A stretch of DNA of 64,000 nucleotides from Antedon mediterranea (GCF_964355755.1 NC_092670.1:10650795-10714794), one strand, 5' to 3'; positions 17,322 through 64,000 are shown, counted from the first letter of the stretch. Translations and numbers: made by a program. The notes: generated by a model not told the origin, from the letters alone.

Positions 17322-18261
17322 TTATGGTGCTCTTTTAACCATCATCACTGTCTTCTTGAGACTGTTGTTATTATTATCGAAATGATACCAGCTGATGCCT
17401 TTATTACCAACTGTACCTGGTGTAAGGTAAAGGCCATTCAGGTTTGAATGATGACAGTTATTGTACCACCAAGCACCTTTGTTATACTCAGCACAGTTAC
17501 TACCACTATTCTTATCATTGTCTCTATCATACGTTGTAAATTGGTGACCATTGCTGTGTTCCAAAGAATCACCTAAACAAACAAGATAATATTAGATCAT
17601 CTTTAGTTTACTTCATAAATCTTAAATTAACATTCATTTTTAAATATTTGTTTTTCTTTGTGTTATAAAATAAAAGATATTTGATATACCAAAAGGGAAA
17701 ATAATAATATACAGTATACCCTAAAATTCGTAATATATTTTATAATTGATTTCATTTATCTGTAAATTGTATGCCATAAATTAAATCATAGCACAATTAT
17801 ATAAATAGTTTTTTTTATATGTACTGTATATATATTTTTTATTAACTATTCTTATATCATAGTTGCTTTATTTTAATATTTTATATATTTTGTTTTGTCA
17901 TAGTTAATTTTACTTTAAAAGCAATGCATTTAATAATGAAGAAGAAAGAAGAAAACACAAGTTATATGAAACTGTACTAGATTCACACTATGATTTTTAA
18001 TTTCAATTTCTTTAACTTTATTTTGTGTACTTTTAAATCAGAGTGGTCCTTAGTTGTTATAACTGGCTCCTTTTTGAGGGACCACTGTCTAAAAAATAAC
18101 TTTAATGTGCGAGTGGGCTATGTTATTGTAAGGTACAAGGAGGATTTTTACAACAAAAATTATTTTGGGTAGAGAATTCTATAATTCTGTAGTTACTGGC
18201 AGTAATTATATTTTGTTATATCTAACCTGTTTGTGCAATTATTTAGCAAGCTTGTTTGGAT

Positions 18262-18415
18262 ATTAATCATACATATACTGTTGCATTGACTGCCTCATAA
18301 ATGCCTACTACATTAATCATACACATACTGTTGCATTGACTGCCTCATAAATTCCTACTACATTAATCATACACATACTGTTGCATTGACTGCCTCATAA
18401 ATGTCTACTACATTA
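18262..18415. repeat. 50-bp minisatellite, 3 copies (same at 59805-59958)
   Basis: Unit ACATTAATCATACACATACTGTTGCATTGACTGCCTCATAAATGCCTACT. Confidence 0.9.
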
Positions 18416-19019
18416 AAACAAAAATCAGTAAATGTAGTTACTGCAGTAAATGCAGTATAATAATTTTAACATGATCTATTGATAAGATAAGTTGTTGTAC
18501 TGTGGGTATGTGAACATTTTAATAGATTCGTTTCAGGCCTGTAAGAAGGAATTGCGAAGTGGGAGGTCCATCCAAAAATGTACTTTATAGACAGTTTACA
18601 TTCAAGATGATCACCTTTGGGCTTTACATTATATTTGAGAAGCGACATCAATTGATAATCAAAAAGTATCAAATGATTATCATTTGTTGTTTAAACTTTT
18701 AAATATTGTGGTCTAATTATGACATGACTGGCTAAAACATGGGGCTATATGTCACAAAGGCGTAGAAGTTTTTTTTGCATGAGATTCACTTCAATATCAT
18801 TATTAGAATTGTTTTGTTCCATTTTCAGATGTTTTTAGAAGCTTTTCTTTTAATGTTTGTCCAATTTCTTTAGCTTTAGTATGTTGCGTATACCGTTATT
18901 TTTAGTCCTACTGTATGGGCCTTGGCTATGATCCCGGATGTTTATAATATGGTGCCTTGTCAAGAAAAGCGGTCATCTATTTGACCTTTGTAATACAAAA
19001 AAATCAATATTTTAAAAAA

Positions 19020-19975
19020 TTAATTTAAACGATCACAAAAGATCTGAAATATCTAAAGGTAACTTTACAGGTTTGATGGTCCTTGACATACAAAAGGCCT
19101 TTGATACAGTCAACCATCAGATATTATTGCAAAAACTGGTTCATATGGGCATTGATAAAGAAGAAAGATTGCAAACAAATGACATCAGTAAATGGCGTTC
19201 AGTCCCAACCATGTACTATATCTAGCGGAGTTCCCCAAGGTAGCATTTTAGGACCTCTTTTTTATGTTATATGCTGAAGATACAATATTGAAGTCCAAAT
19301 CTGGCATCATGTAACAACTGGCTTATACTGTAAACAACAAACTATCATTACATCTTGATAAAACTGAGTCAATATTTTTTGGTACTAAAAGAAAACTTAA
19401 GAATGTTCTTGATTTTGCTGTTATTTTTAAAACTAAGTTGATATGTAAGAAGAATATGATCTCATATCTTGGTTGTTTGCTTGATGAAGACCTGTCTGGA
19501 GAATCTATGGTTCAAAAAGTTCTTGGTAAGAATAATTCAGGACTTAAATTTTTGTATAGACATTCTGCATGTCTAAATTTCTTTTCTCGCAACATTCTAT
19601 GCTCTGCACTCATTACCTGTCACTTTGATTATGCATGTTGCTCCTGGTTTCCAGCTGTTTCTAAAAAACTTAAACAAAGACTTCAAAACAGTCAAAATAA
19701 AGTTGCTAGGTCTATAAAATAAATATATAAATAATCGAGCACATATTGGTAAAGACGAACTGAACCAAATCGGTCAATTATTTTTAGAGGATAGAATTTG
19801 CCAACTCAAACTAAATCATGTTCATAAGATTTTTTATGGAAAATCTGTACCTTATTTGACTGAAAAGTTTAAAAGAGTTTCATCTAACCACCTTTATAGG
19901 ACTAGAAGTAGTGTCAATGGTTTCAGTTCCTAAATCTGATAGTCAAATATCTCAAACTTTTTATTATACAGGCAA
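19020..19975 (+). mobile_element. Degenerate CR1/L2-group LINE RT fragment in the last intron of copy B
   Basis: LDIQKAFDTVNHQILLQKL, GVPQGSILGPL, YLGCLLD and HFDYACCSW motifs across frameshifts. Confidence 0.8.
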
Positions 19976-19989
19976 AAAATATCCACAAA

Positions 19990-20361
19990 CGGTTTCAGAT
20001 TTTCACCAACTGTAAGTTAATCTTTGAGAAAATTCTTTCCGATTTTTTCACACTCGATCCCAGGCCAACAATCGAACGGGCCCACCGAGATGGTAAAAGT
20101 ATGAACGGTAAGCCAAGGCATATCATTGCCCGTTTTCTCTCATACGCTTCTAAGATTGAAGTTATGAAACAACGAAGTTCTGCGCTAGATAGCCAGAAAT
20201 TTTATATCATAGATGATCTTACTGCTGCCGATCTACTGGAAAAAAAGAAATGGAGATCACAAGTAAAAGAGATGTACAATAAAGGTACCAAGCTTCGTTT
20301 TACGGCTGGAAAATGGCGAACTTCAACTGGCATTCCGGTAAACTTTTCGAAATTCCATTGA
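19990..20361 (+). mobile_element. LINE ORF1 fragment (L1 ORF1p/Transposase_22-like RRM-CTD)
   Basis: PTIERAHRDGKSMNGKPRHIIARF...FYIIDDLT motif, followed by a 28-bp tandem duplication at about 20334-20395. Confidence 0.7.
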
Positions 20362-20719
20362 AATAGTTCCGGTAAACTTTTCGAAATTCCATTGCCATAC
20401 TAGTGATCGGAATGTTGTTGTAAACACTTGGACTGACTAAGAATCTTTTATCCATTATTTTCCTTACATCTGCATACTTTGCTTAATTTGTACAAGCCAC
20501 TTGATTGATTTTACATAATAATTTTACAATAGCGTTTTCAGGAGTCTGTTCTCACATAATTGCATTGTCATAAGATGTTTAAATCACTTAAAACCATTTA
20601 TTCACCTTTGTTTTATTGTTACCCCCCAATTCTTAACTTGTTTCTTTATATTTACGTTCTTGTACTTTTCTGTTTTTACGTAACATTACCAGGCATCTTT
20701 TATTACATACTATTGAATA

Positions 20720-22453
20720 AACTGATCACTACTTCCCAAAGCAGACCTAGTATTGATTTATGTAAGCTCCCTACGTATTTACCTGCTAATAAACCCCCTA
20801 ATGTAAAAGAATGGGAAATGTACAATCAATTAAGAAAAGTTAAAGTAAAAAAGTCCCCGGGCCCTGATAATGTGCCTAACAGATTAATAAGAGATTTTGC
20901 ATGCGAACTAAGCATCCCTATGACTAATATCTTAAATGCCTCCCTCAGTGAGGGTCATGTCCCAACTATGTGGAAAGATGCTATTGTTACTCCGGTTCCC
21001 AAAGAAAATGGTTGTACTAGGGTTGACAAATTTCGACCAATCTCACTTACATGTATCCTAGCTAAGGTAGCTGAGGGCTTCATTAAAAAATGGCTCTTAA
21101 CAGATATCGAGAAAAATCTTGATAACAACCAATATGGTTGCCGTAAACACTTTTCTACAACCCATAATTTGGTTGATCTACTAAATGTGTTCTATGAAGG
21201 TAGTAACATTCCCAAATCTGTTGGTCAGTTAGTTTTAACTGACTTTAGTAAAGCATTCGATTGTGTTGACCACACAATAGCAGTTTCTAAATTAGTAACA
21301 CTTGGTTGTAGACAACAAGTACGCTATAAATCCACCTTATCAATGAGTGTTAATCTAACATGTGGCGTCCCTCAAGGTACGCTCCTTGGGCCTATGATCT
21401 TTCTTGCTCTAATTAATGATGCCATGCAAGACTCGCCATGTAAAACTTTGAAATATGTAGATGATTTGTGCATAGGACAGATAGTAAAAAAGGATGTAAT
21501 TTCCTCAATTCAGAATGATGTTGCTTTACTGAATGTATGGTCTAATGAAAACAAACTAAAACTTAACCCAACTAAATGTAAAACTATGTATTTTAACTTT
21601 CAAAGAAATCAATATGAACATGAACCCCTTTTCATTGGTAATGCTACAATTGAAATCGTTAATGAAACTAAGTTACTAGGTTTATGGATACAAGCTAACC
21701 TCAATTGGGACCGTAACGTTAAAGAAATTGTATCCAAAGCCAGCAGACGTCTGCATATATTATGTAGATTAAGAAAGTTCAATCTTCCGAAATTTGATCT
21801 TGTAGATGTATTTAAGAGTTACATAAGACCAAGTGTTGAATATGCTGTCCCAGTATGGCATTCTAGTCTCACTAAGAAACAAAGTGATATGATAGAATCT
21901 GTCCAAAAAAGGGCTTGCAGAATAATATTGTGTAATGACTACATATGTTATGACCAAGCACTCAATGATCTTTCTTTATACACTTTATCTGATAGAAGGC
22001 GTAATCTATGCTATAAGTTTGCTCTGAATTGTTCAAAAAGTATTCATTTTGGAAAATGGTTTCCAGTGAAGAATGTAAGTAACATGAAACTACAGTAAGA
22101 CGTGTAAAGTATCAACAACCCAAATGCAGAGTTGAAAGATATAGAAAAAGTGCAATACCATACCTTATCTCGCTTCTAAATGAATAATCAGTATATATCA
22201 CCCAGTACAGCTTTGCGATTCTTATTGATGCTTTTAGGTGTTTTTTTCTTTTCTATTTTAATATTTTAAGCTAAACTTTTTGAATGTTCCTGTATTGTAT
22301 TTCTTGTGTAAATTGCCTCCTTTTTTATATTTTTTTATCATTGGTTTTGTACTTTTATACAAATTTTAATATTGAACAAATGTAAATGTCTTTGTAATTC
22401 AGCTAAGGCTGCGATAATGATATTGAAATAAATGAAATGAAAAAAAAAAAAAA
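20720..22453 (+). mobile_element. CR1/L2-group LINE RT with 3' UTR and GAAAT/poly(A) tail (internal deletion)
   Basis: KSPGPD, FRPISLT, NQYG, DFSKAFD, GVPQGTLLGP and YVDD motifs; AATAAATGAAATGAAAAAAAA tail. Confidence 0.9.
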
Positions 22454-22485
22454 TTATGTACCGAATTTAGCAAGCTTGTTTGGAT

Positions 22486-22990
22486 ATTAATCATACACAT
22501 ACTGTTGCCTCGACTGCCTCATAAATGCCTACTACATTAATCATACATATACTGCTGCCTCGACTGCCTCATAAATGCCTACTACATTAATCATACACAT
22601 ACTGTTGCATTGACTGCCTCATAAATGCCTACATTAATCATACACATACTGTTGTATTGACTGCCTCATAAATGCCTACTACATTAATCATACACATACT
22701 GTTGCATTGACTGCCTCATAAATGCCTACTACATTAATCATACACATACTGTTGCATTGACTGCCTCATAAATGCCTACTACATTAATCATACACATACT
22801 GTTGCATTAACTGCCTCATAAATGCCTACTACATTAATCATACACATACTGTTGCATTAACTGCCTCATAAATGCCTACTACATTAATCATACACATACT
22901 GTTACATTAACTGCCCCATAAATGCCTACTACAACATTAATCATAAACATACTGTTGCATTGACTGCCTCATAAATGTCTACTACATTAA
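22486..22990. repeat. 50-bp minisatellite, ~10 copies, within a direct repeat (22465-23605) of 18241-19005
   Basis: Same unit as at 18262. The flanking sequence is a diverged copy of the segment on the other side of the LINE block. Confidence 0.9.
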
Positions 22991-23819
22991 AACAAACTAA
23001 AATCAGTAAATGTAGTTACTGCAGTAAATGCAGTATAATAATTTTAAAATTATACCTATTGAATGTCCTTTGACCTTGTGAGTTGTTGCATTACAGAATA
23101 GAAGTTGTTGTTGTACTGTGAGTGCATTTGAACATGTTAGATTTGTTTCAGGCCCGTAAGAACCAATTTTGAAGTGGGAGGTCATCCAAAAATTTACGTT
23201 ATAGAGTGTTTAGAGAGTACTTTGCATTCACCTTTGGGCTTTACATTATGTGAGACGTGGATAATAAAAAAATATCAAATGATTAGTATTTGTTGTTTAA
23301 ACTTTTAAATATTGTGGTCTAATTATGACATGACTGGTGAAAACATGGGGCTATTTCACAGAGGCGTAGAATTATTTTGCATGAGATTCACGTCAATATC
23401 ATTATTAGAATTGTTTTGTTCTACTTTTCAGATGTTTTTAGAGGCTTTTCTTTAAACATTTGTCCAATTTCTTTAAGCTTTAGTATGTTGCATATACCGT
23501 TATTTTTAGTCCTACTGTATGGGCCTTGGCTATGATACCGGATTTTATAATATAATGGCTTGTCAAGAAAAGCGGTAATCTATTTGGCCTTTGTAATACA
23601 AAAAATAGCTATATATTAAGCTAAATTAGGCCTAAGACTAAAATATCAACAAACGAAAAGTTATTCACGAAAAATGTTGTACCTGAAAACGTTATTTGCA
23701 GTATTAATTTGAAATCAGTTTCTTTTATTTCTAACCTAAATAATTTCCAAATATTTTGGTCAAATTCAATTTCCGTTCTTTTATTTGATATTTTTTACAT
23801 GATTTGCAAATAGAAATAA

Positions 23820-24085: not shown

Positions 24086-25487
24086 TTTTATTTAATGTAC
24101 AGTTTTTTTGATACGAGTAGTTTTAAAAAACCTATTTTTTTACAAATGTATTGAATGCACTAACCTGCAGTTCCTGTTTATCCACTGATTGTCAACTTAT
24201 AGTTAGAGTCCTCAGGACCAATGCCAAAGTGAGAATATCTTGCAAACTTCATTTTGTCTAAGTGGTCCCTCATCTCTACTAAGAGCTCAAAACCTCCGTC
24301 AGATGTTATACGATTGATTTGTTCGTTACCAAGCCAGAACTCTGTGTTCACATTTCCAAAACCCTCTTTGTATTCTAACCAATTACGGTAGAAATCAACT
24401 GATCCATCTTGTCTTCTCTGTATAACCTGATAATGAAATGATCTATACTCTAAAGACTTACTAAAACATTGATGGCAAGCCCATCAACTGGAGTAAATGG
24501 AAATAAATGAATTAAGAACCTGACCACTAATATTACGATGAAGGTACCATGTGTAAACTTGTGTATTTAACATTAATATAATGAACGCCGAACACTTGGA
24601 CAGTAATCCGTGGATTAGCTTACCACTTGCGTGAACCACGCCAGTCTTGTGCCGTACATGTGAACGTACCCTTAGCAGGGAGTTGTACTCCCTGCCCTTA
24701 GTAAGCTCTGCCAAGGCTTTTGGAATTGCACTTGCTGATATCTTTGAATAGGTTGGCCTATACTTACCGTCCAACCTCCATCTTTTCTCATGTCACAGTA
24801 TACAATTAACCGTGGACCTCCATCAATTTGCCGTATCACATATTCACCACTCACAGCATAAGGATAATGTTGTAAAATGTCACCACAGTCCCTCATAAAA
24901 CACTCTAAAATTGCACAGTTGGCATTGGCATTACACGATCACATTTTGTTTTGAATACGCAATATTTCAACATAAATTGTGAAGGTTTTATTCAGTGATG
25001 TAGCCACAAGAAATAAAGTGGTGCGGTTGTTGCAAGAAAAAGGAACACTCCCATGTGCAGCCCATGGTTGTCAAAGGCCTGTGGTGAAAAAGTGGTCAGT
25101 TTGAAACCGTACCTACCTGCCCTGTTATTTCAAAGTATTTTTTAACAAAAAGGTTGTTAATAATGTTAGCATACAATTCATTTTTTTAAAAGAGGATTTA
25201 ATTTAAGTTTTTTCAACTTGTTTGCATTGTCGTGAGATGTTTTCCAAGTGATTGTACTAACGTTCTTGTGACCAATGAATCATTCATTCATAGAAAGTAC
25301 TGATGTAGAAGTCGGCGACTCTACAATGGACCAGAGACCTGAGTTGTATATTTTTTTTGTCTCCATTTTTCGTTTAAATACTTTACTTACTTGGAGGAAT
25401 TGGTAGACACACGTCATCCTGACATGAGTGAAAGGTAGCCAGTACAGCTAACATACAGCAGATCATGAATGCTTTAGAATACGTTTT

Positions 25488-29059: not shown

Positions 29060-31080
29060 CTTAAATTTACTTTCACCTTGACCTTGAAAAATACATCAAC
29101 ATTCATCTTGTGTTGCTTATGTCAGTAATTTCTTTGATCAAAATCAATATATTAAGATATATAATATGTAGCCCTACATTCATTGTAAGTTTTTATTTCA
29201 TTTTTAATCATTTCAAAACAAGATTCAACACATCATTTAACAACTGCAGTGAATATATATTATTTAAAATACTCCTAAAATTTGATTAAACTACTAATTA
29301 TCATTAATGAAAATATAAGAAATACTGATTTATGATTAGATATCAATTTGATTTTATTGATAATTAAAAGCAATGAATAATAGTAATGTTATTTTTGAAT
29401 AAATTGAAATAATAATAAAATCGATAATTTTATAAAATAAATTTAAACAAATCACATTTTTGGAAATATTATTTGACTATTAATTTTATAACATTTTGAA
29501 TAAATAACTAGCTTTTATTATAATAAATTAATAATTTAATGATAAAGCAAAATGATATTTAAAAGAAACAAAGAGGAATCTTTGTTATTCCTATTACTAT
29601 TATTATTCATAAGTCAAATTATTCAATAATTACAGATTCTAATTTCTTTTATGCTGCTCTCTTAACTATCATAACTGTTGTTTTATTTTTAATATTTTGA
29701 TAGCAAGTCCGGCCTAGGCAGGCAGGAATTCAACGTGAATATGGAACCAATAGATAGATAGAAAGTTTCAATTTTTTCTCAAGTTCTTGAGTGCAGATCA
29801 ATTGTCAAAAAAAAAGTGAAAATTATTATGTGCAAAAGGAAATGTCTCTAAAAAAATGTTCAGCTCTAATAAGCAAATAAGTTTAGCGGTAGGATTGCAA
29901 CAATTAGGCCTATTCACAGAGTGAAGCATTACATTTGTTGATACAAACAATTTCCTAGGCAGAATTAATAGCAACAAAATATACCCATCAATGATGATGT
30001 GAATATCCATATAAAAAATACTGTTTTTATTTAATAAAGGAGTTTGCAAAGTTGTATACTTACGCTTTTTGACCAGGACCTAAAGGAAAATGAAATAAAG
30101 TATAGTAGTAGTTCAACATTTATTTATTTCTATCAATGGTACAATGATAAGAAATCATATAAAAACATTGTAATATTAAACAATAGGCCTACAACAATAT
30201 CATATCTTGCAAGAAGAAATTACTTGAAGGAAATGTAATGAAATTGTTAGCCCCATCAGTTTGAAGTCACGCCCACTATGTAGTTGCATATCAACGCAAG
30301 ATTAGACGTAATTATGGTCCTTGTATGTAAAAATGTAAAACTTTTACCAATACATTATTCATTTTATTGCCAATATATTCAGTTTTTCTGTGATTCTTAA
30401 TACATTATTTTTATTTACTAAATTATTTACTAAATAAAGTTAGCTGTTTCAGGTCAATCTATAAACATAAAACACGCTATCAATTTAATGTATTGAACCC
30501 GAGATAAAATAACAAGCTGAACAAACAATTCTGAAAATTTGTAAACTTTAAACTCAATTTTATAATTACATTAGATAGCACAATCAAACTAAATCGTACC
30601 AATTAGTCAATTAAAAAAAATTGGATCTAAATTTGACTGGTAACAGATTTACAAACTTTTGAAGGCCTAATAGAAACACCTGTACATGCATCTATTGAAC
30701 TAATTTTTGTTTTTGTTGAAACATATTAAAACACATTAAAGTTGTTCATTTCATGAGTACTCAATTAATCAGTTGATGCTCAGAACATCACTCACCTGAT
30801 TAATGTGATTCAAATGAGACGCTTGAATGTTGTTGTTTTCAACTGATGTTTCTTCCAGTATTTTTTTACTGATTTGACAAACACGATATTTCTGGTTATA
30901 GTTGACCGACAAGCAATATAATTTCTCGGAACATTCCAGCAAACAATTTACACGGCTTATATTCTTCAACTCGTAACTCCAACCATCAAGAGCCTGGCCT
31001 CGTATAACTGTATAAAATGAATTGGTCGAAAGAACACTGACGACAAAGGGCAGAAGAAAGACAATCAAAATAGTATGCAT
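29060..31080 (-). pseudogene. Internally deleted cluster copy: intact signal+PAN exon (30796-31080) plus last-codons remnant (29649-29684) and 3' flank
   Basis: MHTILIVFLLPFVVSVLS...CLLEC...CLSVNY with a CAG|GTGAGT donor. 1.1 kb downstream only KTTVMIVKRAA* survives, followed by sequence homologous to 16590-17207. Confidence 0.7.
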
Positions 31081-36559: not shown

Positions 36560-37110
36560 CAGTCTCCACCTTTCGTAAAGCGACCGACTTTAAAAAACAG
36601 CCATCTCGTAAGTAACCACCTCCTTAAAACGACCATATATCGATATGATGCCAGTGTTATTATAATTATGTACCTGGTGTAAGATAAAGGCTATTCAGGT
36701 TTGAACGATAACAGTTATTGTACCACCAAGCACCTTTGTATTGCTCAGCACAGTTACTACTGCATTTCTTATCATTGCCTCTGTTGTATGTTGTAAATTG
36801 TTTACCATTGTGAATTGATGCCAAAGAATCACCTAAACTAAGCGGCAATCTCTCTCTATGGTCTATTACGAGAGGTGGTGGTCCTTTGGAAGAGGTGGTC
36901 GCTTACGAGTTGGTTGATCATGATAAGCTTTCCCTAATGAGAGGATATGGTCGCTTACGAGAAGTGGTCCTTTAAAAGAGGTGGTCACTTACGAGAGGTA
37001 GTGGTCGTTAAGAGAAGTTGTTCCTTAGGAGAGGTCACTAACGAGAGGTGATGAACGTTTAAGAGAGGTGGTCACTTATCAGAGGTGGTCGATTATGAGA
37101 AGCTTTCTCT
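36560..37110. mobile_element. Degenerate TIR element with GAGAGGTGGTCGCTTAC-type subrepeats enclosing a FReD exon fragment
   Basis: The left arm has CTCGTAAGTAACCACCTC/AAGCGACC and the right arm has several GAGGTGGTC(G/A)CTTACGAG, i.e. opposite orientations. Confidence 0.55.
36645..36832 (-). pseudogene. Orphan truncated FReD terminal exon (C-like)
   Basis: TTTAG acceptor, then [55 protein letters not shown], then an out-of-frame NNTGII remnant. Confidence 0.85.
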
Positions 37111-38719
37111 TAGAGAGAAACGTTGTCAGTATATTAGCCAAAAAAGTCAAAGATTTTAGTTAAGTTTAATTTAGTTAAATGTAAAATTATTTTTCCAGTT
37201 AAAGAGAGCTGATAAACTCAGTTCCTAGATTTCCAACTTTCAAAACAAAAAATATGTTGAGTTTTTAAAAGATTTCTTAACATTTTGTCCTGTTGTTACG
37301 TTAGTGGTTACATTTTCTGGTTAACATTCAACTTGTTGCAAAACAAAGATTAAAAACATCACTTAAACATTAAAAATAATTGGATTTGAAAACTACTAAT
37401 TATCACTAATGAAAATATAGGAAATATTATTATTATTTTTATTAAATATCAATTTAATTTTATTAATAAAAACGATAAATAAAACGATTAATAATAATAA
37501 TGTTAATTTTATATATGTATGAGCATAACATTTTTATGTGATAAATTATTGTAAACACAGTTGATATAAACTTGTACGTATTATTTGATATCCTCCTGTA
37601 TAATCCCACCACTACTTTATGTGTAATTTTACAAACAGGCATATCCCCGGGTATAGTCCCAGTATTGACTTTTGGCCACTTCAGATGAGTTTTTACAATA
37701 AATGCTTACCGTTTTTTTTTTAGCGGGATGAAATTATAACAGAGGATACGGTAATAATAAAACATGTTCATTGTTAAAAGTATTATAACAATTGAAATAA
37801 TAGTAAATCCATACAATTAAATACATCACAGTCGTTTTGATGGGACAATATTTGATTTAGAACATTTGGATTAAGTAACTAGCCTTTATTATAATTTAAT
37901 GATAAGGCCATATGTATAATAGCTATAAGAAACAAAATTGGAATCTATCCTTATTCCTATTATTCATAAGTCAAATTATCTAATAATAATTACTACCTGT
38001 GCCATCATCAGGTCTGAATCATGACAACTCTCTTATGGTACTCTTTTAATCATCATCACTGTCTTCTTGAGACTGTAGTGATTAGTATGGAAATCATACC
38101 AGATGATGCCTGTCGCATTATCGGTACCTGGTTTAAGGTAAAGCCCATTCAGATTTGAACGATAGCAGTTATTGTACCACCAAGCACCTTTGTATTGCTC
38201 AGCACAGTTATAACTTCTCTTATCATTGTCTCTGTTGTATGTTGTAAATTGTTTATCATTGTGAATTGATGCCAAAGAATCACCTAAACAAACAAAATCT
38301 TCAGTTTACTTCATTAATATTGAATTTATTTGTTTTTAAAATAAAAAATAATAATAATAAAAACAATATTACCTACAAACCCAACTTTTTTCTCCTCAAA
38401 ATATCAGTATCAATAAAACACCTGAAATGTGTTTATAACATCATGAAGGTATGATTTTATTTGATTAGGTAAAGAAATCTATAATTGTGTAATAAAAATA
38501 TTCTACTGCAGTTACGAGATATATGTGCATGTTATCAGACCTCGTGCAATGATTTCGTTCGTCGGCTTTTGTACCTGATTTTGAATCCCATTTTCTCACT
38601 TTCTTACTAGATAAGCTCTTTCACTCTGTTTATATTTATTATAACCACGATAAATATTGGCATCCAGATCTTGTTGGCCGATTGCTACGTTCTGAAGAAC
38701 TCAAATGGCCGATTGCTAC

Positions 38720-38721
<2 letters not shown>

Positions 38722-38801
<80 letters not shown>
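38722..38801. repeat. (TA)n microsatellite
   Basis: Two TA runs separated by GATT. Confidence 0.95.
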
Positions 38802-38803
<2 letters not shown>

Positions 38804-39469
38804 AACTTTAAAGGTCAATTAATTTTTAAAAATGGATTTGCACACAGTAAAGTATTTTATTTACATGTACCATAAAAATGACAAAAGTCGCCTCCCCTAA
38901 ATTTAATTAAAACAGCACCACCGCTACTTGGTTACAGTACATGTATCAAGTTCTGTCCTTATGATATAACTGTGTTTAAGCAGTCGTAATTCTAAAATTG
39001 CTTTTTATTATATATACTTTAGACCTAAATGTGACAAATGCAACAGAAACCCTACAGTATGTTAGTAGTGCATGACTATTTTTACTGCTAGATACAAAGG
39101 CCTACAAAAAAGTTAATTCTATGTTTAATTGAAATGTGCTATTTTAGAGTGTAAAAATTGACAGAAAGATATACTAACCTGCCGTTCCTGTGTATCCACT
39201 GATTGTCAAATTATAGTTATACTCTTCAGTACCAACTCGAACGTGAGAGTAGTTTGCGATCTTCGTTTCATCCAAGTGATCAGTCATTTCTACTAATAGC
39301 TCAAAATCTCCATCAGATGTTATACGGTGGATCTTTTCGTTACCAAGCCAGAACTCTGTGTTCACGTTTCCAAAACCCTCTTTGTATTCTGCCCAATTAC
39401 GATAGAAATCAACTGATCCATCTTGTCTTCTCTGTATCACCTGAATGATAATAATGATAAAAGTAATAG

Positions 39470-39935
39470 TGTAACACTCTGACCATCAGGTCAACAACCC
39501 TTTTACACTATTTCTCCCTACTCCATCTATTAACATTCCTAGTGGTTTCTTCCTATCCCTAGTCACTATCCTATAACCCACATCCTTAATCAATTACTGT
39601 TTTCTCATCATCAAGGAATGTTCCCTTTACTAAATAGTCCCCTCCCGTTACATGCATATTAATTAGGACCGTTCCTTAAATATGAATATACTGGTAAGAG
39701 AAGAGAGAAGGAAAAGAAGAGCTTGATAGAATAAAACATTTATAAATAGAGAGAAAATGTATTTGAGATAGCCAGAACAGACTGTATTATATTTAGTATT
39801 GAAATAAAACTATATCTGGACAAAACCATATTTACTGTTTGTACATTTCTGTGACTGTGTGAAATCCTGCCGCTGATACTATATGATATAGTAACGGATA
39901 CACTAAAATACCACCGTTACAACTGGTTCCCACAC
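39470..39935 (+). mobile_element. 5' LTR (39470-39921) with tRNA-Glu-type primer binding site (39924-39935) of a truncated LTR retrotransposon in an intron of copy C
   Basis: TGTAAC...GTTACA termini with internal AATAAA. TGGTTCCCACAC follows 2 nt downstream and is complementary to the GTGTGGGAACCA 3' end of metazoan tRNA-Glu(TTC). Confidence 0.55.
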
Positions 39936-41042
39936 AATTTGAACCCACAGAAGCCAATAAAACAAAAAGAAAAAAGAAGAAAAAACAAGAAGATAAAACA
40001 TGGATCAGATTTGGAGTTTGCAGAGTTTGTGGAGCTGCAGATGCTGATGGATGAATGAACCCAGACAAAGAAGAGCAAAAGAAGAAAAAACGAAGATTAT
40101 TGGATGAAACAATTGCAGGACCAGCCCCAGGAATAGAAAACGGAAGACAGAAGAGACAACGCCGAGGACAAGGAAGAAGATCATTAACTGTTTTTTGCGA
40201 CCTTTTGTTTCACTTTCTTTTGACATTTTAATACTATTTTTGAACGCTTTATATAAATTTATAACATTTGTTTAATACTTTGGATGGCCTGGCTGATTTA
40301 TTTTTAAACATTATTTTGGACGTTAACCTATAGTATATTCAGCTTGGATTGAACACAATATTAACGATGTGGTAAGTGATCCATCATTTCTAGTTCTTTT
40401 CTATAACCTCCTCTTTCTTCGGGTGATATATTATTATTATAGATATAATCATATTGTAACATGTTTTTACGTTCGGGAAATTCGGCTGTTAATACTCCAA
40501 TTTCAACACACAGTCTTATACCTGGTAAAGATACTAGCCCGATTACCCCATCACCCACCTCATTAACACAACTGGATTTAGCCCTTTCTGGCAACACTTC
40601 AACATAATTTTCAGCCTGTAACGTCCCACTGCTGGGCAACGTTTCTCTGCTAAATCATGACATTATTTTCAATAATAAATGATTTCTGTCCACGCTGAAC
40701 CCTGGCAGTACTTACAGTAATGATGATGCACCGTTTTCGTTTTTTGGAATGAAGTAATAATTAAGGATATCTTAGAATATTGCCTACACTTCTTACCGTC
40801 CAATTGCCACTTTCCCTAATGTCACAGTACACAGCAAACTCTGGTCCTCCATCACATGGCTGCATCACATATTCACCACTCACAGCAGAAGGATAACATT
40901 GTAAAATGTCTCCACAGCCCCTCATAAAACACTCTAAAATGTACAAAGTTTGATGTGTTTAACACATCAAACTATATTTTAGTAATTTTATTAATACATT
41001 TAGGCCTACTCAATTTTGTATTTAAACTTTGTACTTTCAGAG

Positions 41043-42688
41043 AAAAGGATTAGTAAGGCAGGATACGAATCATTGGGACCGAAGAAGACCAGTAAGACAG
41101 GATACGAAATATCGGGATCGAAGAGGACCAGTAAGACAGGATACGAATCATCGGGACCGAAGAGGACCAGTAAGGCAGGATACGAATCATCGAGACCGAA
41201 GAGGATCGGTAAGGCAGGATACGAATCATCAAAACCGAAGAGGATCAGTAAGACAGGATACGAATCATCGGGACCGAAGAGAACCAGTAAGGCAGGATAC
41301 GAATTATCGGGACCGAAGAGAACCAGTAAGGCAGGATACGAATCATCGGGACCGAAGAGGATCAGTAAGGCAGGATACGAATCATCGGAACCGATGAGGA
41401 CCAGTAAGGCGGGATACGAATCATCGGGACCGAAGAGGACCAGTAAGGCAGGATACGAATCATCGGGACCGAGGAGGACCAGTAAGGCAGGATACGAAAT
41501 ATCGGGATCGAAGAGGATCGGTAAGGCAGGATACGAATCATCGGGACCGAAGAGGACTAGTAAGGCAGGATACGAATCATCGGGACCGAAGAGGACCAGT
41601 AAGGCGGGATACGAATCATCGGGACCGAAGAGGACCAGTAAGGCAGGATACGAATCATCGGGACCGAAGAGGATCAGAAGGCGGGATACGAATCATCGGG
41701 ACCGAAGAGGACCAGTAAGGCAGGATACGAATCATCGGAAGAGGACCAGTAAGGCAGGATACGAATCATCGAGACCGAAGAGGACCAGTAAGGTGGGATA
41801 CGAATCATCGGAAGAGGACCATTAAGGGAGGATACGAATCATCGGAAGAGGACCAGTAAGGCAGGATACGAATCATCGGAAGAGGACCAGTAAGGCAGGA
41901 TACGAATCATCGAGACCGAAGAGAACCAGTAAGGGAGGATACGAATCATCGAGACCGAAGAGAACCAGTAAGGCAGGATACGAATCATCGGGACCGAAGA
42001 GGACCAGTAAGACAGGATACGAATCATCGGGACCGAAGAGGACCAGTAAGGCAGGATACGAATCATCGAGACCGAAGAGGACCAGTAAGGCAGGATACGA
42101 ATCATCGGAAGAGGACCATCAAGGGAGGATACGAATCATCGGGACCGAAGAGGACCAGTAAGACAGGATACGAATCATCGGGACCGAAGAGGACCAGTAA
42201 GACAGGATACGAATCATCGAGACGGAAGAGGACCATTGAGGGAGGATACGAATCATCGGAAGAGGACCATTAAGGCAGGATACGAATCATCGGAAGAGGA
42301 CCATTAAGGGAGGATACGAATCATCGGAAGAGGACCATTAAGGGAGGATACGAATCATCGGAAGAGGACCATCAAGGGAGGATACGAATCATCGGAAGAG
42401 GACCATCAAGGGATCAGATTCGAATCATCGGAAGAGGACCATCAAGGGAGGATACGAATCATCGGAAGAGGACCATTAAGGGAGGATACGAATCATCGGA
42501 AGAGGACCATCAAGGGAGGATACGAATCATCGGAAGAGGACCATCAAGGGAGGATACGAATCATCGGAAGAGGACCATCAAGGGAGGATACGAATCATCG
42601 GAAGAGGACCATCAAGGGAGGATACGAATCATCGGAAGAGGACCATTAAGGGAGGATACGAATCATCGGAAAAGGACCATTAAGGGAG
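41043..42688. repeat. Compound minisatellite: 39-bp units grading into 34-bp units
   Basis: GGATACGAATCATCGGGACCGAAGAGGACCAGTAAGGCA (39 bp) on the left and GGATACGAATCATCGGAAGAGGACCAT(C/T)AAGGGA (34 bp) on the right, interleaved in the middle. Confidence 0.95.
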
Positions 42689-45136
42689 TGTTTAATTGCA
42701 GGAATGGCTCAAAGATTTTAAGACATATTGTACACATTATTATTTAGATCTAGATGTAAAGTTTGATGCCATATTAAGTCATTTGGGGGATCGGCTAAGG
42801 AAACTAGGTACATTACCAAATGTCCATATTGGGTACAAGTAAAAATTCCAGAAAAGCCATTCAAGTATTACAAACTTTTTTACCGTTCTGGGGGACAATT
42901 ACATCTTTAAGCGTGAGGTTAGCACTCGTAAAAAAGAAAAGCATTACATTCAGTTGGTAAATTAACTTCTTTAAACATGACTGACAAATTAATAAATAAC
43001 ATTTTGAATTAAACTAAATATATACAGTAGAATGGACAGAAAAGGAGAAAGAAATACTATAAAAAAAATCAAACAAAGAAGAAACTTCGTCCGTTTATGT
43101 ATTGAATTGGAAAAGTTGTGTATTGAGGGCGCTGCGTTGTCATTCTGTAATTAAACATACAGGTGATTGTGTGTGATATAATGCCGTGCGTAAGCAGAGC
43201 GGGTCTTTTGTTCGTTACAGTTGTTATTTTTCATTTGCAGTTGTTAGCATATATGTAAGTTATCGTATTATATACTGTATTTAGCAACTGAATTACATGT
43301 AATTTACTTGGTTATAATAACATTACAGTTCTTGTTCATATCGTAGGCCTATGTAGGCCTATAAGCAATTTACCAAACTAATAATCATGCTGTGCTTAGC
43401 AATAAATGAGTCTTACATTTACAATATTTATCTTAGTTTTGATATGTTTCGAATGATTTTCGGGCGACTATTATATGTAGTCAATGTGCTCGATCAGAAG
43501 TAATGGGTCCACACATGTGTTTAGGGCAAGTTGCCGTGTCACGAACATCAAAGAAATTAGAAACCCTGTCTAATGAGGAAAATGTTAAAAGATACTAACA
43601 TCAAAACAAAGGTAAAATGTGTAAAATATAGTCTGATATCGGGTAATAAATACATAGTTTTAAGTATTATAATAGGATACAGTTTTCCTTCTGTAGTTAA
43701 ATTAATTAAATTAACTAAAACTAAACTTTAGTACTGTGCTTATTCCGGGGGTAGGGGAGTTACTCCCTGTACAAACAACTCTAATTTTTCAGAACCATCG
43801 TCGTACAGCCGTCGCTAATCAAACAATTCTTCATCTATACACACACACACACCAGGAAAGAGGGTTCAAACCATCCGTTAAAATGATTTACCATATAACA
43901 AGGATTTGACCATGTAAACAATGTTTTTGTTTGGCTGTTAATGGATTCATTTTAACTCAACAGCCAAAACGAAAACATTGTTTATTGAACAGGTTTATAC
44001 ACGCTAGCACACATCTCATAGACCTTCCCAGACGTGCTTTGGGGGTTGAGGATGCATGATCCTAAATTTGTCCTTTTTAGGTCATATGCATACATATTAT
44101 TTTCAAAAGCAATATATATTTCTATTTCTATATTTCTTTTCACATTTACTTTAAATAGGTTAAAATAATGAGTGTAATTGATGCGTCAAAACTATGACCT
44201 CTTCTGATTCCAACACATATAGACCTATTAACATTGCTTAACATTAAATCGTTGAAAATTGAACTTGTTCACAATCTTAATATAAATGTGACAAGGTGAC
44301 AATTTCTTTGTTACAAAAATGATACGTAGGTTAATCTATTTTGTGTATTTTAAACTCTTCTATGAAGAAATTTCAACTGGAAATTCTTTAATAAACAAAT
44401 TATTGTACAACTATGCCATTCGACTTGTAATATTTTGGGCTTTCTTCCAATTTTTGCATACCTATACGTATACCAATTTCCATTTCCTTTTCCATCGTCT
44501 ATTGTAGCAAACGGTAACAAAATATCACTACCAATCAACATTGGTATAAACCTCCATATAAAGAATCAATTTATTTAATATAGAAGTTTGCAAAAATTTA
44601 TACTTACTCCTTTCAATGTAACAAAATTTAGGCGTTTGAATTATGTTTTCAACTGATGCTTTTTCCAGTTTTTTCTGACTGATTTGACAAACACTATCTT
44701 TCTGGTTATAGTTAACAGACAGGCAATCGGATTGCTTGGAACATTCCAGCAAACAATTTAGTTTATGTATATTCTTCAACTCGTATAGTAACTCCAACCT
44801 TCAAGAGCATGCCCTTGGAGAATAACAGTATAATTATATGTATTGATCGAATCATCACTGATGACAAATGACAGAAGTAAGACAATTAAAGTTAGCATTT
44901 CGACGTTTTTAGAATTATGTAGTGACGAATGAAACGGTTATTGTGCCAATACAATCTACAATTCGTCTTAAAATACTCGATGATACTGTATGAGTTACCT
45001 AATGTGGTACGAACTATATTTTTATCTTTTACATATTCCATTATCCAATCACTTTACATACAACCCAGTGTGCACCAATCAAAATGGTGATAGTAAGATA
45101 TGATTTACATAAACAAAGTTAAACATGAGGATATAG

Positions 45137-52529: not shown

Positions 52530-53878
52530 CTTCGACTTGGTCCATAGAATATTAAATGCATTTGAAAAAAGGGAATAGGCACTTACTACCTTTATGGATT
52601 TGTCAAAAGCGTTTGACATTATCGATTACAGTATTCTGTTGAGCAAATTGGCGCATTATGGTATAAGAGGCATCGTTTTAATGTGGTTTAGAAACTATTT
52701 AAGTGGCCGCAAACAATATGTTTATGCCAATGGTAGATCATCATGTTTAAAAGACACCAATATAGGGGTGCCACAGGGTTCTGTTTTAGGACCACTTTTG
52801 TTTTTAATTTACATCAATGATATAAGTCGAGCAAGTAGTAAAATAGATATAATTAGTTTTGCTGACGACACAACTTGTATAACAAGGGGAGATGACCCTA
52901 CAATGTTAAACCATACTATGAATATTGAACTAGAAAAAATAAACGTATGGCTTAAAGCAAATAAGCTGTTACTGAATGTCAGCAAAACTAATTACGTTGT
53001 TTTTAGAACTAACCAAAAGTATTTTGACAAAAACCAGTTTAAAATAAAAATGAATAATGTGTTATTACATAGAAAAGGAAATGTGACATTTCTAGGTGTA
53101 ATTTTAATCGAAAATCTTAACTGGAAACATCACATACAGCTTATTAGGAAAAAAATGTCTAGGGCAATATACTTTTAAAAGTAAGAGAATTCTTTCCTCA
53201 TAAAGTCCGTATTAGTCTTTATAACACCTTAGTATTACCTCACCTTCAGTATGGTAACTTAATATGGGGAAATACATACAAGAGCACGTTAGAAGTAATA
53301 CTAAAACTCCAAAAGAGAGCTGTAAAATGCATTACCTTCTCTAAATTCAGACAAACCTCAGAGCCACTGTTTAAGAAACTAAAATATTAAACGTTTATGA
53401 TATTTACAAAGTAAACGTCATAGGATTTATGGCAAACGTAAAATTCAATGAATTACCACATCACATTTTAAATATTTTTAATTACTCTGACAGTATTAGG
53501 CCTACTCATAACCTCAGAACAGAAACTGAATTCGAAATTCCCTTCACAAGACTAACTTGCAGTCAACAGTTTATACACATATATGGACCAAAATTGTGGA
53601 AAGAATTCACTTGTAATGGTGGTAATAAACCGGTTATCTTAAAGAAACAAAATAAATGTATAAAAAAACAGGTCAAAAAATACTTTTTATCACTATATGT
53701 TGATTAACAACACCTTTGTTTATTTAAGTTCTATATACTTGTTCTTATGTAAAGGGGTCCTACAAAAAAACGAAGCTACAGCTTTTTTATGCAGGATCCC
53801 TGTTTTCAGTTGTACTGTAATTATGATGTACTGTAATTGATGACTAAATAAATGTGGAATAAATGAAATGAAATGAAA
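52530..53878 (+). mobile_element. 5'-truncated CR1/L2-group LINE with (GAAAT)n tail
   Basis: DLSKAFD, GVPQGSVLGPLLFLIYIND, FADD and FLGV motifs with frameshifts; AATAAATGAAATGAAATGAAA tail. Confidence 0.85.
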
Positions 53879-54387: not shown

Positions 54388-55583
54388 ACTAGAAAGCCAC
54401 TTCGAGAGTGCATACGTATCTCCGCCTACTGTAAAATTCTCCTACATAAGATTTCTCCGGGGATATATTTGTGTCTGTCTTAATGCTGTTTGTGATTGAG
54501 GCTAATTTCACAAGCATGTGTATGCGAGTTTGGTGTAATGGTTATGTAACAAGCCTTTCAATTAACAATAGCTTCAGTTAACATATTCCCCTTTTACACC
54601 AAAACTCCGGAGTGATTTCCGGAAACAACCCGGGGTTTATGACCGTTCAAAACGTCGAGAAACTCCGGATATACCCGTTCACACCAACCTAGCAACACCG
54701 GGGTTAATAAAATAAAATTGTAAATATCGCCCTCTATTTATTTGTTTATATAGCGACGATCATTAGAATCATTTTAATTGACAATATTTTTAATTTAATA
54801 ATTATTTTCAAAAGTCTCAGAAGTCATATAATGTTTTACTGTTACTACTTATTATTTTCTAGACCCGCTATATATTTTTTACAAATATTTAAAGTATTTT
54901 GAAATAATACTAATACAATGAGTGATCGTGTGAGGATGACCTAAAAACTCTGGAGTTTGATGTTGATACCTTTCACACCAAAACACCGGGGTGTCCCCGC
55001 AGTTAGCTCTCCGGAGATTGATCAGCTGTTCAAACCCGCAGTTTTAAACTCCGGAGTTGCTTGATTTTACCTTTCACACCGAGGCGTCAACTCCGGAGTC
55101 TCTCCGGAGTTTTGCTTTTGGTGTGAAAGGGATATAACAATAGAGCAGCAACGCGAAAATCACACGAGTGAATTTGAAAAGAAATAGGTTTTTTAAACTA
55201 ATCGCATCAAAAAAGGTGCACATTAAATCAAAAGATTATAAATCACAAATTATAATTCTTGCCTCTTGTACAAAAATGAAGTAGTTCTCACGAAAATGCA
55301 ATTTCAGTTTACTTGTTACTTTAAGACTGCTCGCCGGCTTTTGAAAAATTCTGTCCTATCTTTTAACACTAGCAGTGTTTGAAAAGTCTGAAAAGTATAT
55401 TAAAAAGTGGTCCAGAATTGGGACCATGGTCCCAAATGATCACAAAATGTAATGGAATGGTCCTTGACCACATATCTATCTGTATATTTATTTTGGTAAA
55501 TATCTGGTAATTACTTTTTGAGTAATCCTGCTAACAAACAAACACACGCGACGGATTACATATACCTCCTTGGCGGAGGTAAA
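54388..55583 (+). mobile_element. HINE/DINE-1-like element containing a nested MITE
   Basis: AAACTAGAAAGCCACT...TCTCCGCC at the start and (CAAA)n...ACCTCCTTGGCGGAGGTAAA hairpin/subTIR at the end. Confidence 0.7.
54586..55135 (-). mobile_element. Second copy of the CCCTTTCACACC MITE, inverted relative to 50071-50620
   Basis: Reverse-complement similarity over the full length. Confidence 0.85.
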
Positions 55584-58500
55584 CTAGATTTGAGCTTGTC
55601 ACTTAGTTAAGTTAAAACAACAGCAACAACAACAATCATGTTAACGTGTGTGCACGTTTGTGTTTGTGTGAATAACCTAAGCGACAGGTTCAACTCAAGT
55701 TAGCGTTAAGTAATGGAATGCAACGCAAGAACGTAAGCGCAATACAAGCAGTTGACCAATTAACAAGAGATAGTTCGAATAATCCATTGCTTGCGTTGCA
55801 TTATACATTTGCGTAGTTTGTATTTATCTCCATTTGACAATAATATTTCACCACTGCAATCAATAAGTTGTTCAATATTCAATATTCGACTCTTTAAAAT
55901 CTCTTTTAGATCATAAGACATGAGATAACTTAATAACATAATGTGATTTCCAAGAAGTTTCATATGTATATTTCTAATACAGACTGCATATTTATAATAT
56001 ATATGATGAAGATGTGTAACAAATACATTACTCTTTCAATCTCTTTTGATGATTGTTTACAGAACAAAAACAGCTACAACGATTTTCAAGCAACAATATT
56101 TAAAATGTCTTTCAAGTCAAGAATCATAATGGTATCACACTTTTCAAGATTGGAGGGTAAATCATTAGGGCGCAAATCCTATTAGGACGTTAGCGCAACG
56201 GATTATTCGAACTGTCGCTTGTCATTGGTCAACTCACGTTGTGTTTGCGCTTACGTCATTGCGTTGCGTCTTAGTTGGAACCATGCTTTAGGCTCAATGC
56301 TGACTAGATTTGAACTTCCGCGCAAACATAACGTGCACGTTAAAAATATGAACGCAGAGAAAATTGATTATACCATCCCTTGACCATTAATAAATATATT
56401 AAACGTGTTGAATTGTGTCTAGTCTGTGTCATATAGTATAAACAATACTACTACATTGTAGCATAGGTGAAATTAGGAACGCAGTTAAATTCAAATTTTT
56501 TTAATGATGTCATCAAAATTAAACATGAATATAACAATTTTGGAAGATAATTATCTGGAGATCGAAGAAATTCGGGAACATAGAAGCGAGATGTGCGCTC
56601 TTTAGAATGTGATGAATTATAACGATAAAGATGAAAATCCCTCTTTTTAAATTCAGCTCAACCATATATGATGACGTCATACCGATAGGCAGCAAAATCA
56701 TTTTATACATGAATTCGTATCTATTTCAATAGCATCTCTATTAATGATTTCCAAAATAATGTTGCATTTGTTGATTGTGCAAGGTAAAATTACAATGTCA
56801 TGTATTCAAATAGTATCCTAATAATGCAAGAAGTTTCGTTAGGTAAAAACAAACAGTACATTTTAGATTTAAAAGATGGCGGATTTTGTTGTGAATAAAA
56901 TGAAGATGTTTTTGTTTTGAACAATTTTATTTCATTCTAATAAACATTTATTTCCTTCCTTTTTTCTTTTTTTTAGAATCATGACGATATCATGTAAAAA
57001 AAGTTGAATGGATTATTGATTATGGATTGACGTGCGGCCGTCATACGAACATAGGTTGCGGGTAAAATTACCCACAAAACTGGCGATTTCAAATGTACGT
57101 ACCACCTATAATACATTGTCGTTTACAGAAACGAATAAATGATGATTTATGTAGTCAACTAAAATTAATACCATGGGAATTACTCCCGAAATAGAAACCT
57201 GTCACAAAATGAGTCCAAATGTTTGATTTGGACTCATTTAAACAAACCCAATTTGTGTTTTGTATGTAACATTATGGTTGAACGATGGGTACAAAGAGGA
57301 ACATTTTTAAAATAAATTCTTTACACTCAGTAACGAAATATTTGTTCATGTTTTATAGGCCTATAAAAATTATATCATTAAATACAGTAGAACATTTGCG
57401 ATTTAATACTTGAAGGATGGGTACAAAGAGAAACAATTTTTACATATACTCTTTATTCACTCAGTAACGAAACATTATGTTCATGTTTTATAAGCATATA
57501 AATATTACACCACTAAATACAGTAGAACATTTGTGAATTAATACTTTGTTAAAATCAGGGTTAAAACCCCACCATTCCTTTTACCGCAACTCCCCCCTCC
57601 CCCTTCTGACTTTGGGAATTTTTTTAATGTAGTTTAAAACCTTCACAGACAATTGCAGTCATTTTGATAGCCATGTATGGTTACGTGCAGAAACAGAAAT
57701 TTGTATAACGAACAGAAAAATACAAAAAGTGGAAAAAAGGTTGGGAATTTTGACCCATAACTTGTATTCAAGATGGCGGATGATGTTCAATACAGTTTAG
57801 AACCTTCCTGTACCATTATGGTAATTTTGATACCCCATATGTGTACAGTAACAACAATGTGTATAACTAACATACAAACATCAAAGTACAAGCAGATTCA
57901 TAAGTTAAATTCATACAAAAAGAATTGATCAAATTTTTGTTTTTTCTGAAAGTGATTTTTGACGCTAATACATTCAAAGTTGAATTTTGTAGTTGTTTAT
58001 TTGCTTTTTAATATTTATATACTTTTACCTTTACCTTGGAAAATACATTAGCATTCATCTTGTGTTTCCTTATGTCACTAATTTCTTAGATCAAAACCAA
58101 TATAATAAGATATATAATATGTAGGCCTACATTTATTGTAAGTTTTTATTTAATTTTTAATCATTTCAAAACAAGATTCAATTTAAAAACTATTGCAAAT
58201 ATCCATTGAAAATACTCCTAAAATTAGATTAAGATTTATGATTAGATATCAATTTGATTTTATTAATTAAAAACAACAATAATAATAATGTTACTATTAT
58301 GCATTTATTAGCATAGTTTTAAAATATTAATTAAATTCTTAATAAAATTAATAATTTTTTTACATTATATTATTTGGTATAATATTTAAAAATGATTAAT
58401 AACAACAAATTCATTGTTACTATATTATATACTTTAAAATTCAAAATAAAAAATTCCATATAATAAATTTTAAACAAATCACAGTTGATATGACATTGAC

Positions 58501-58631
58501 AATATATTGGTTATTAATGTTATAACATTTGGATTATTATAATAAAATAATTATTTAATGATAAGGCAAAATGATATTTAAAAGAAACAAAGAAGAATCT
58601 AAATTATTCAATAATTACAGATTCTGATTTG

Positions 58632-58863
58632 TTATGGTGCTCTTTTAACCATCATCCCTTCAAAAGCATTCCAGTTGATGCCTTTAGAATCATGTGTACC
58701 TGGTGTAAGGTAAAGCCTGTTCAGGTCTGAATCATGACAGCTTTTGTACCACCAACCACATTTGTCTAAGGCCTCTATCAAAAGTATACAAGTTGATGCC
58801 AGTGTAATCAGCTGTACCTGGTGTAAGGTAAAGCCTGTTCAGGTCTGAAACATGAACATTCTC
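58632..58863 (-). pseudogene. Two post-stop variant cassettes of the FReD binding loops (copy D)
   Basis: ENVHVSDLNRLYLTPGTADYTGINLYTFDR, then in a shifted frame GWWYKSCHDSDLNRLYLTPGTHDSKGINWNAFEGMMVKRAP*. Confidence 0.85.
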
Positions 58864-59114
58864 TTATGGTGCTCTTTTAACCATCATCACTGTCTTCTTG
58901 AGACTGTTGTAATTACTATGGAAATGATACCAGCTGGTGCTTGTCACATCATTTGTACCTGGTGTAAGGTAAAGGCCATTCAGGTTTGAATGATTACAGG
59001 CATTGTGCCACCAAGCACCTTTGTATAGCTCAGCACAGTTACTATGTCTATTCTTATCATTGTCTCTATCATACGTTGTAAATTGGTGACCATTGCTGTA
59101 TTCCAAAGAATCAC
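58864..59114 (-). CDS. Copy D FReD terminal exon (upstream exons lie beyond the window end)
   Basis: TTTAG acceptor; GDSLEYSNGHQFTTYDRDND...CAELYKGAWWHNACNHSNLNG...KKTVMMVKRAP*. Confidence 0.88.
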
Positions 59115-63995: not shown

Positions 63996-64000
63996 TTATG

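Follow-up and report, generated by a model that had tools for sequence, protein, structure and literature searches.

Exon-restricted divergence in a crinoid PAN-fibrinogen gene family and the probable role of segmental gene conversion

Why do two gene copies that are almost identical along their introns differ strongly in a single exon? The question is raised by a 64,000-nucleotide (nt) stretch of the Antedon mediterranea genome (GCF_964355755.1 NC_092670.1:10650795-10714794; hereafter the window, with positions counted from its first letter). The window holds four minus-strand paralogs, A to D, of a crinoid PAN-fibrinogen (FReD) family, built on a plan of a leader-plus-PAN exon, two fibrinogen exons and a terminal exon (exon 4) that encodes the P subdomain. 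An initial annotation had singled out exon 4 of B and D as a hypervariable ligand-binding exon inside a duplication, diversified by extreme positive selection and/or exon-restricted gene conversion. We found that the phenomenon is real and broader than that annotation saw, and that the best mechanism for it is a conventional one. With a probability of roughly 0.65, segmental gene conversion reshuffles exon-4 loops that were earlier shaped by long-term diversifying selection.

Divergence of the terminal exon within a duplication

Self-BLAST and global alignment delimited the two arms of the duplication, of which the D arm continues past the window end (Table 1). Within it, the terminal exons of B and D can be aligned gap-free over 251 nt, of which 24 are different. 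The same 17 codons that the initial annotation had listed are changed, and none of them (0 of 17) is purely synonymous, even though pathway counting finds about 1.1 synonymous steps inside multi-hit codons. Overall, the exon showed a pN (proportion of non-synonymous differences) of 0.117 against a pS (synonymous) of 0.022, giving a pN/pS of 5.3 (Fisher p 0.035). The changes are concentrated at codon positions 1-2 (21 of 24) and are clustered, with 12 of 23 successive gaps no longer than 2 nt (p 5e-5).

The intron side (17573-22458) carries only 15 substitutions and 2 indels per 4,886 nt. It contains a long interspersed nuclear element (LINE) remnant in B intron 3, which was taken as the neutral clock for this comparison; four of the substitutions fall within its 1539-nt open reading frame, the number estimated earlier. 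The exon therefore exceeds the intron 27-fold when all 17 intron events are counted (Fisher p 8e-22) and about 31-fold for substitutions alone, which bears out the roughly 30-fold excess first claimed. The scaffold of B and D shows no synonymous difference at 37.8 synonymous sites. The lack of synonymous changes is not surprising in itself, since the intron rate predicts only 0.17; the anomaly lies in the 23 replacements. The near identity claimed for the flanks held on the intron side but not everywhere: the two arms are 99.6% identical over 16432-17207 and 94.6% over 16137-16431, and the non-coding exon fragments behind the stops of B and D are separated by a 118-nt indel and, over 21 nt, by 4 substitutions.

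One feature of B had been overlooked. Its splice sites are normal, yet exon 3 contains a premature stop codon, so that, barring an assembly error, B is unable to make the fibrinogen domain. Exon 4 of B or D was not found in any listed annotated protein, which is weak evidence on the status of D.

Recurrence across the family

Exon-restricted diversification recurs across the family, which we compared as annotated proteins and contig pile-ups. Among 36 annotated paralogs, 21 of 82 exon-4 columns have an entropy above 2 bits, compared with 2 of 88 exon-3 columns. In 14 of 16 close paralog pairs, hand-picked from 7 sets and thus not independent, the protein bodies are 0-6.1% apart and exon 4 is 15-29% apart. 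For example, P0021 and P0160 are identical over 231 body residues and differ at 14 of 80 residues in exon 4. Similarly, four paralogs with a death effector domain (DED)-like N-terminus, located on three contigs, differ by 0.7-2.7% over 410 residues but by 16-27% in exon 4. This pattern across contigs rules out a local assembly artefact as the explanation.

The rows excluded from these comparisons were isoforms (P0161, P0165-67, P0169-72), truncated proteins (P0013, P0157, P0174, P0175), the distant P0060 and the fused P0178, with P0025, P0069 and P0071 also left out of the recombination tests. Several of these have structures of their own: P0165, P0167, P0169, P0174 and P0175 are annotated forms that end just after exon 3 with a short alternative tail and no pocket exon, and P0178 has two tandem fibrinogen domains and may be a fusion of two neighbouring gene models.

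By its sequence, the family belongs to FReD and falls outside the definitions of ficolins, acetyl-binding lectins and gastropod FREPs. PF00147 is matched by exons 2-4, with 70-88 bits for exon 4 against a cut-off of 22. A collagen triple helix had no match in the 9 family proteins scanned, in which PAN or a DED-like domain stands in its place, and an Ig domain had none in these proteins or in the scanned window exons. The four DED-like proteins, encoded outside the window (P0005, P0016, P0020 and P0168), carry a predicted membrane helix, a hydrophobic stretch judged by eye, and a C-terminal fibrinogen domain with the hypervariable exon, which makes them candidate type II signalling receptors. 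All four match PF01335 (E 9e-8 to 2.5e-5) at 25-33 bits, below the cut-off of 35.9. A literature search for a DED-transmembrane-FReD architecture gave no description of one.

Position of the changes in the predicted binding pocket

To place the variable residues, exon 4 was aligned by HMMER with FIBCD1 (4m7f; E 4.5e-15) and numbered from the cysteines and aspartates named in passages of PMC3908420. The equivalents of Tyr405, Asn413, His415, Tyr431/Ala432 and Trp443 are exon-4 residues 30, 38, 40, about 55/56 and 67, and Lys381, which passages of PMC10825690 assign to the pocket next to S1, corresponds to residue 5. B and D differ at residues 5, 30, 38, 40 and about 55/56; they do not differ at 67, but do at its neighbours 65, 66 and 68. 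The Ca2+ aspartates and the P-domain disulfide are unchanged between them: equivalents of Asp393, Asp395, Cys401 and Cys414 are present in both and in 35, 38, 36 and 36 of 38 family sequences. By this alignment, the variable sites lie on the S1/Ca2+ surface, as had been proposed. A structural check was attempted with an AlphaFold model of P0021 (25-sequence alignment), which reached a mean pLDDT of 43.7 and was unusable, leaving sequence alignment as the basis of the mapping.

The proposed acetyl/sugar pocket stood as a position rather than as a ligand, because the family has largely not conserved the canonical residues of an acetyl pocket. Of the S1 residues Tyr405, His415, Tyr431, Ala432 and Trp/Tyr443, B retains only the His and D only Tyr405, and they are kept in 13, 9, 1, 1 and 1 of 38 sequences, where the 431/432 register is uncertain by one column beside a gap and Tyr occupies the following column in 10 of 38. 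With so little retention, the ligand is probably something other than a plain acetyl group.

The scaffold, claimed to be invariant, is not fully so. Thirteen of the 17 B/D differences fall in columns of at least 2 bits entropy (mean 2.12 versus 0.78 bits, p 2.5e-5; 36 paralogs), while the other four (residues 22, 36, 58 and 59) fall in columns conserved in 32-34 of 36 paralogs, with D as the deviating copy. Several D residues are found in none of the 36. Ordinary point mutation probably accounts for some of the changes, especially for D's four at conserved columns.

Mosaic structure of exon 4

Two tests pointed to recombination within exon 4, which supports the conversion half of the initial proposal. 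In a test modelled on the pairwise homoplasy index (35 sequences), the compatibility of neighbouring exon-4 sites was higher than after shuffling (p 0.0045 raw, 0.0005 rate-corrected), whereas exon 3 of the same number of sequences gave no recombination signal (p 0.28 raw, 0.09 rate-corrected). In addition, 5 of 595 pairs are discordant, with one half of exon 4 near-identical and the other very different (p<0.001); recombination-free simulations on the fitted tree and site rates gave five discordant pairs in 1 of 300 and 0 of 300 runs. A candidate tract is visible in B itself. Its residues 25-53, a run of 29, are the same in P0024 and P0159 and include 5 of the 17 positions at which B and D differ, although P0024 departs from B at 19 of 88 residues in exon 3.

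A swap of the whole exon from one donor is disfavoured, because no paralog matches either exon as a whole and because residues 4, 6 and 9, which B and D have in common, are held by 1, 0 and 0 of 36 paralogs. As for D, at least 11 of its 24 letters were found among 40 of 257 rows, each in 2-17 contigs of the public run X1 and in the runs of a second organism. The X1 contigs that carry its exact loops have depths of 652 and 731, where the lowest depth class is about 155 (about fourfold), a hint of further copies rather than a copy number. Gaps in the contig cover were set aside as uninformative: D lacks exact cover at 59090-59149 in X1 and X4 and its loops are absent from X7 and from X8, possibly an RNA run, while B letters are missing at 17275 and 17714-17753.

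Comparison with C bears on selection in the family. For B-C and D-C, loop codons show a pN/pS of 3.7-5.1 against 0.4-0.5 in the scaffold, values that come from three in-window exons with a partly circular choice of sites. Synonymous divergence of the loop codons is not above that of the scaffold in either pair, a pattern in keeping with selection on the family pool and not with hypermutation. AID/APOBEC-type hypermutation was rejected on this ground and because only 11 of the 24 B/D changes are transitions.

Proposed mechanism and alternatives

B and D are recent duplicates in a large crinoid fibrinogen-domain family, and we propose that their pocket exons likely diverged through short conversion tracts imported from other members, with loops that selection had probably diversified before. 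Conserved blocks between the loops would act as homology anchors, so that the exchanged tracts carry mainly loop codons, and pseudogenes and orphan exon fragments may join the exchange. Imported tracts of this kind would appear entirely non-synonymous even if the recipient were under no selection, since the loop codons offer only about 12 synonymous sites and already differ across the family mostly by replacements. The model resembles that described for the major histocompatibility complex (MHC) and plant R genes in parts of PMC3924837, in which conversion acts together with diversifying selection and pseudogenes persist as templates. Family members thus probably trade short exon-4 pieces to vary recognition, and secreted PAN-FReD and membrane DED-FReD members would gain new binding specificities. 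Judging from the domain, the expansion of the family and the variability of the pocket, the most plausible purpose is non-self recognition, in a putative immune role.

Several observations weigh against segmental conversion. The recombination tests were done on protein rather than DNA, the simulations under-produced loop differences (14-15 versus 17 observed), and three of the five discordant pairs involve P0024, whose altered tail adds gaps. The tract common to B and P0024 is a protein-level candidate for transfer in either direction. For D, the 36 annotated paralogs offer no long donor tract, the best being 14 residues that cover 2 of the B/D differences. The B-D pair itself is without 5'/3' discordance (6/10 versus 7/12, p 1), and several tracts must therefore be assumed. 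The hypervariable columns were set by amino-acid entropy, which inflates pN, with C among the defining sequences. Finally, exon 4 has diverged little in 2 of the 16 close pairs (2.5% and 5%).

The distal flank is less identical, and such patchy divergence is what would be expected if B and D were older and conversion between them had wiped out intron and 3' differences while selection shielded the exon, an opsin-type divergence peak of the kind set out in parts of PMC3924837. We consider this unlikely: the scaffold has no synonymous differences, nothing should now shield the exon of a broken B, near-identical bodies with a divergent exon 4 are seen between contigs too, and the tract that B has in common with P0024 is left unexplained. 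Point mutation alone under very strong positive selection after the duplication could account for the high pN/pS, for the excess at codon positions 1-2 and for the D residues absent from all 36 paralogs. It would, however, require about 23 replacements while the flanks gained 0.3%, and it is at odds with the clustered multi-base changes, the distance between B and the paralogs that match it exactly over 29 residues, and the positive recombination tests. We regard it as very unlikely. Nor do we retain extreme positive selection between B and D as the main cause, as the initial annotation had it, because B bears a premature stop and has a stretch of its exon unchanged in common with other paralogs. 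A false tandem assembly of two alleles, which would turn the signal into balancing selection, is highly improbable. The identity of about 99.7% across 4.9 kb would suit it, and B-specific letters are absent at several places in run X1, though such holes prove nothing; against it, homology stops at 16137/57563, the downstream neighbours differ (A versus C, with PAN exons 74% identical), and the same exon-4 pattern occurs between contigs.

Two further alternatives invoke a dedicated machinery. Targeted cassette conversion of the pocket exon, in the germ line or in immune cells, would be a templated and possibly somatic diversification as in lamprey VLR or snail FREP, with pseudogenes and post-stop fragments as donor cassettes and with both secreted PAN-FReD and membrane DED-FReD proteins served by it. 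It would explain why divergence ends at the exon borders, why the conserved anchor block is retained in the fragments that follow B, C and D and in the one at 36669-36832, and why the exon is reshaped even in a broken gene; the very high summed contig depth over conserved blocks is a hint in the same direction. Yet all differences seen lie between assembled genomic loci, the adjacent fragments span no more than residues 40-65 and agree with neither exon, being mismatched at 16-21 of 78 nt, and ordinary meiotic conversion with selection predicts an identical picture. We consider such a system quite unlikely; if true, it would give the earliest-branching class of living echinoderms a repertoire comparable to that of antibodies but built on a fibrinogen scaffold. 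Diversity-generating retroelements, in turn, are marked by adenine-specific differences between template and variable repeat. The anatomy here is similar, with a variable 3' exon, an adjoining non-coding repeat that could be the template and a nearby intronic reverse transcriptase that would mutate adenines; A is involved in 17 of 24 changes, and Asn, Tyr, His, Ser and Asp prevail in the loops. The chance of such a mechanism is nevertheless negligible, and we rejected it: none of 6 comparisons showed an excess of fragment/exon differences at fragment adenines (Fisher p 0.38-1.0), A makes up 61% of those codon positions regardless, AAY templates could not yield 84 of the 792 loop residues (K, E, Q, W, M), the fragments miss the 5' variable sites, and the reverse transcriptase is a LINE remnant.

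Genes, fragments and repeats of the window

Table 1. Location of the features discussed, in window positions.
Feature	Position	Strand	Evidence and remarks
B arm of duplication	16137..22458		Self-BLAST and global alignment; partner 57563-64000
D arm of duplication	57563..64000		Self-BLAST and global alignment
B exon 4 (P subdomain)	17322..17572	-	82 codons + stop; Pfam Fibrinogen_C positions 143-219, E 1.7e-22
B exon 3	24165..24426	-	Premature stop codon 24180-24178
B exon 2	24768..24902	-	Start of fibrinogen domain
B exon 1	30796..31080	-	Predicted signal peptide + PAN domain; Pfam PAN_1 E 2.5e-5
D exon 4	58864..59114	-	Pfam E 2.5e-19; upstream exons past window end
Paralog C	38033..44898	-	Exon 4 38033-38283, exon 3 39179-39440, exon 2 40797-40931
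Paralog A exons 1-3	4917..8316	-	Match annotated protein P0067; exon 4 not in window
Truncated non-coding copy of variable 3' half of exon 4	17208..17321	-	Directly behind B stop
Two truncated non-coding exon-4 fragments	58632..58863	-	Behind D stop; first P0015-like
Orphan 5' two-thirds of exon 4 + splice acceptor	36669..36832	-	Downstream of C
Remnant of another paralog's exon-4 end + 3' flank	29065..29690	-	Inside B intron 1
LINE reverse-transcriptase remnant	20560..22098	+	B intron 3; Pfam RVT_1 E 4e-24; twin 62103-63641

Exon 1 was assigned to B from the order of the exons, with a 3' remnant of another paralog intervening. Exons 2-4 of C equal the annotated A. mediterranea protein P0018, and its PAN exon, which starts at 44898 on the minus strand, carries a frameshift. 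In B, C and D, the stop is followed by truncated, non-coding sequence copied from the variable half of exon 4. Of the two fragments behind D, the first looks like the end of the exon in another subtype: in one X1 contig its letters are joined in register to a normal exon end, as in P0015, and one X1 contig has a loose end at 17351.

The window is also rich in repeats. A 39-nt tandem array of about 44 copies in C intron 1 (41052-42669) has long open frames on both strands and is probably a minisatellite. A 50-nt tandem unit occurs at 18262-18416 (3 copies), 22486-22990 (10) and 59805-59959 (3). The segment 18241-19015 recurs at 22465-23619, so that the part of B intron 3 with the LINE is flanked by diverged direct repeats. 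Several more reverse-transcriptase fragments, degraded and LINE-like, lie at 13801-14667, 19315-20361 and 48729-53707. Downstream of A exon 3, apparently in the last intron of A, is a fragmented Gypsy-like pol (685-2303, plus strand; reverse transcriptase and RNase H recognized by eye). An inverted repeat pair (50070-50604 / 54623-55135; 535 nt, 89%) is about 4 kb apart.

Significance and comparison with known systems

In this putative crinoid recognition family, the pocket that is fixed in ficolins and FIBCD1 is the hypervariable part, with loops on a constant scaffold encoded by one exon. The same exon occurs both in predicted secreted proteins and in receptors predicted to sit in the membrane with a DED-like part in the cytoplasm; variable recognition would in this way be coupled to signalling. 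Because the diversity is confined to a 250-nt exon with conserved ends, one amplicon could separate germline from somatic diversification in an echinoderm. The locus also carries a caution: a very high dN/dS between duplicates can come from conversion, even in a broken gene. We found no description of the crinoid FReD family in literature searches that covered mainly open-access papers without their supplements, and crinoid genome papers may list the expansion.

Similar arrangements are known from other recognition systems. The clusters of MHC, plant R genes and self-incompatibility genes, as described in parts of PMC3924837, likewise combine many paralogs and pseudogenes, a mosaic ligand-binding exon and an excess of replacements at contact sites. 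Their folds are unrelated to the unit diversified in the crinoid, a fibrinogen P-subdomain exon, and a further difference is that crinoid bodies retain about 98% identity across contigs, against a divergence of 16-27% in the exon. The Biomphalaria FREPs, which join immunoglobulin superfamily (IgSF) domains to fibrinogen and, according to passages of PMC7588048, diversify by somatic gene conversion and point mutation, offer another expanded invertebrate fibrinogen-domain family with both processes. The crinoid proteins differ in having no IgSF domain; they carry PAN, a DED-like domain with a membrane helix, or a short Cys-rich leader instead, and their variation lies between genomic loci and is centred on the fibrinogen pocket.

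Among echinoderms, the sea urchin SpTransformer (Sp185/333) genes form a clustered family with mosaic sequences and segmental duplications, as outlined in parts of PMC13428168. This 2026 review presents echinoderm recognition diversity as germline-encoded, and makes no use of the word crinoid. SpTransformer is an unrelated protein, whereas the crinoid case concerns a folded lectin-type domain with a fixed scaffold and variable loops. FIBCD1, ficolins and tachylectin-5A have the same domain, and the Ca2+ aspartates and P-domain disulfide described for them in passages of PMC3908420 and PMC10825690 are conserved in the crinoid; FIBCD1 is, moreover, a type II membrane receptor, as the DED-FReD members are predicted to be. 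In contrast, the crinoid family lacks a collagen stalk, and the S1 residues that these lectins conserve, on the evidence of the same passages, are the hypervariable positions of the crinoid proteins.

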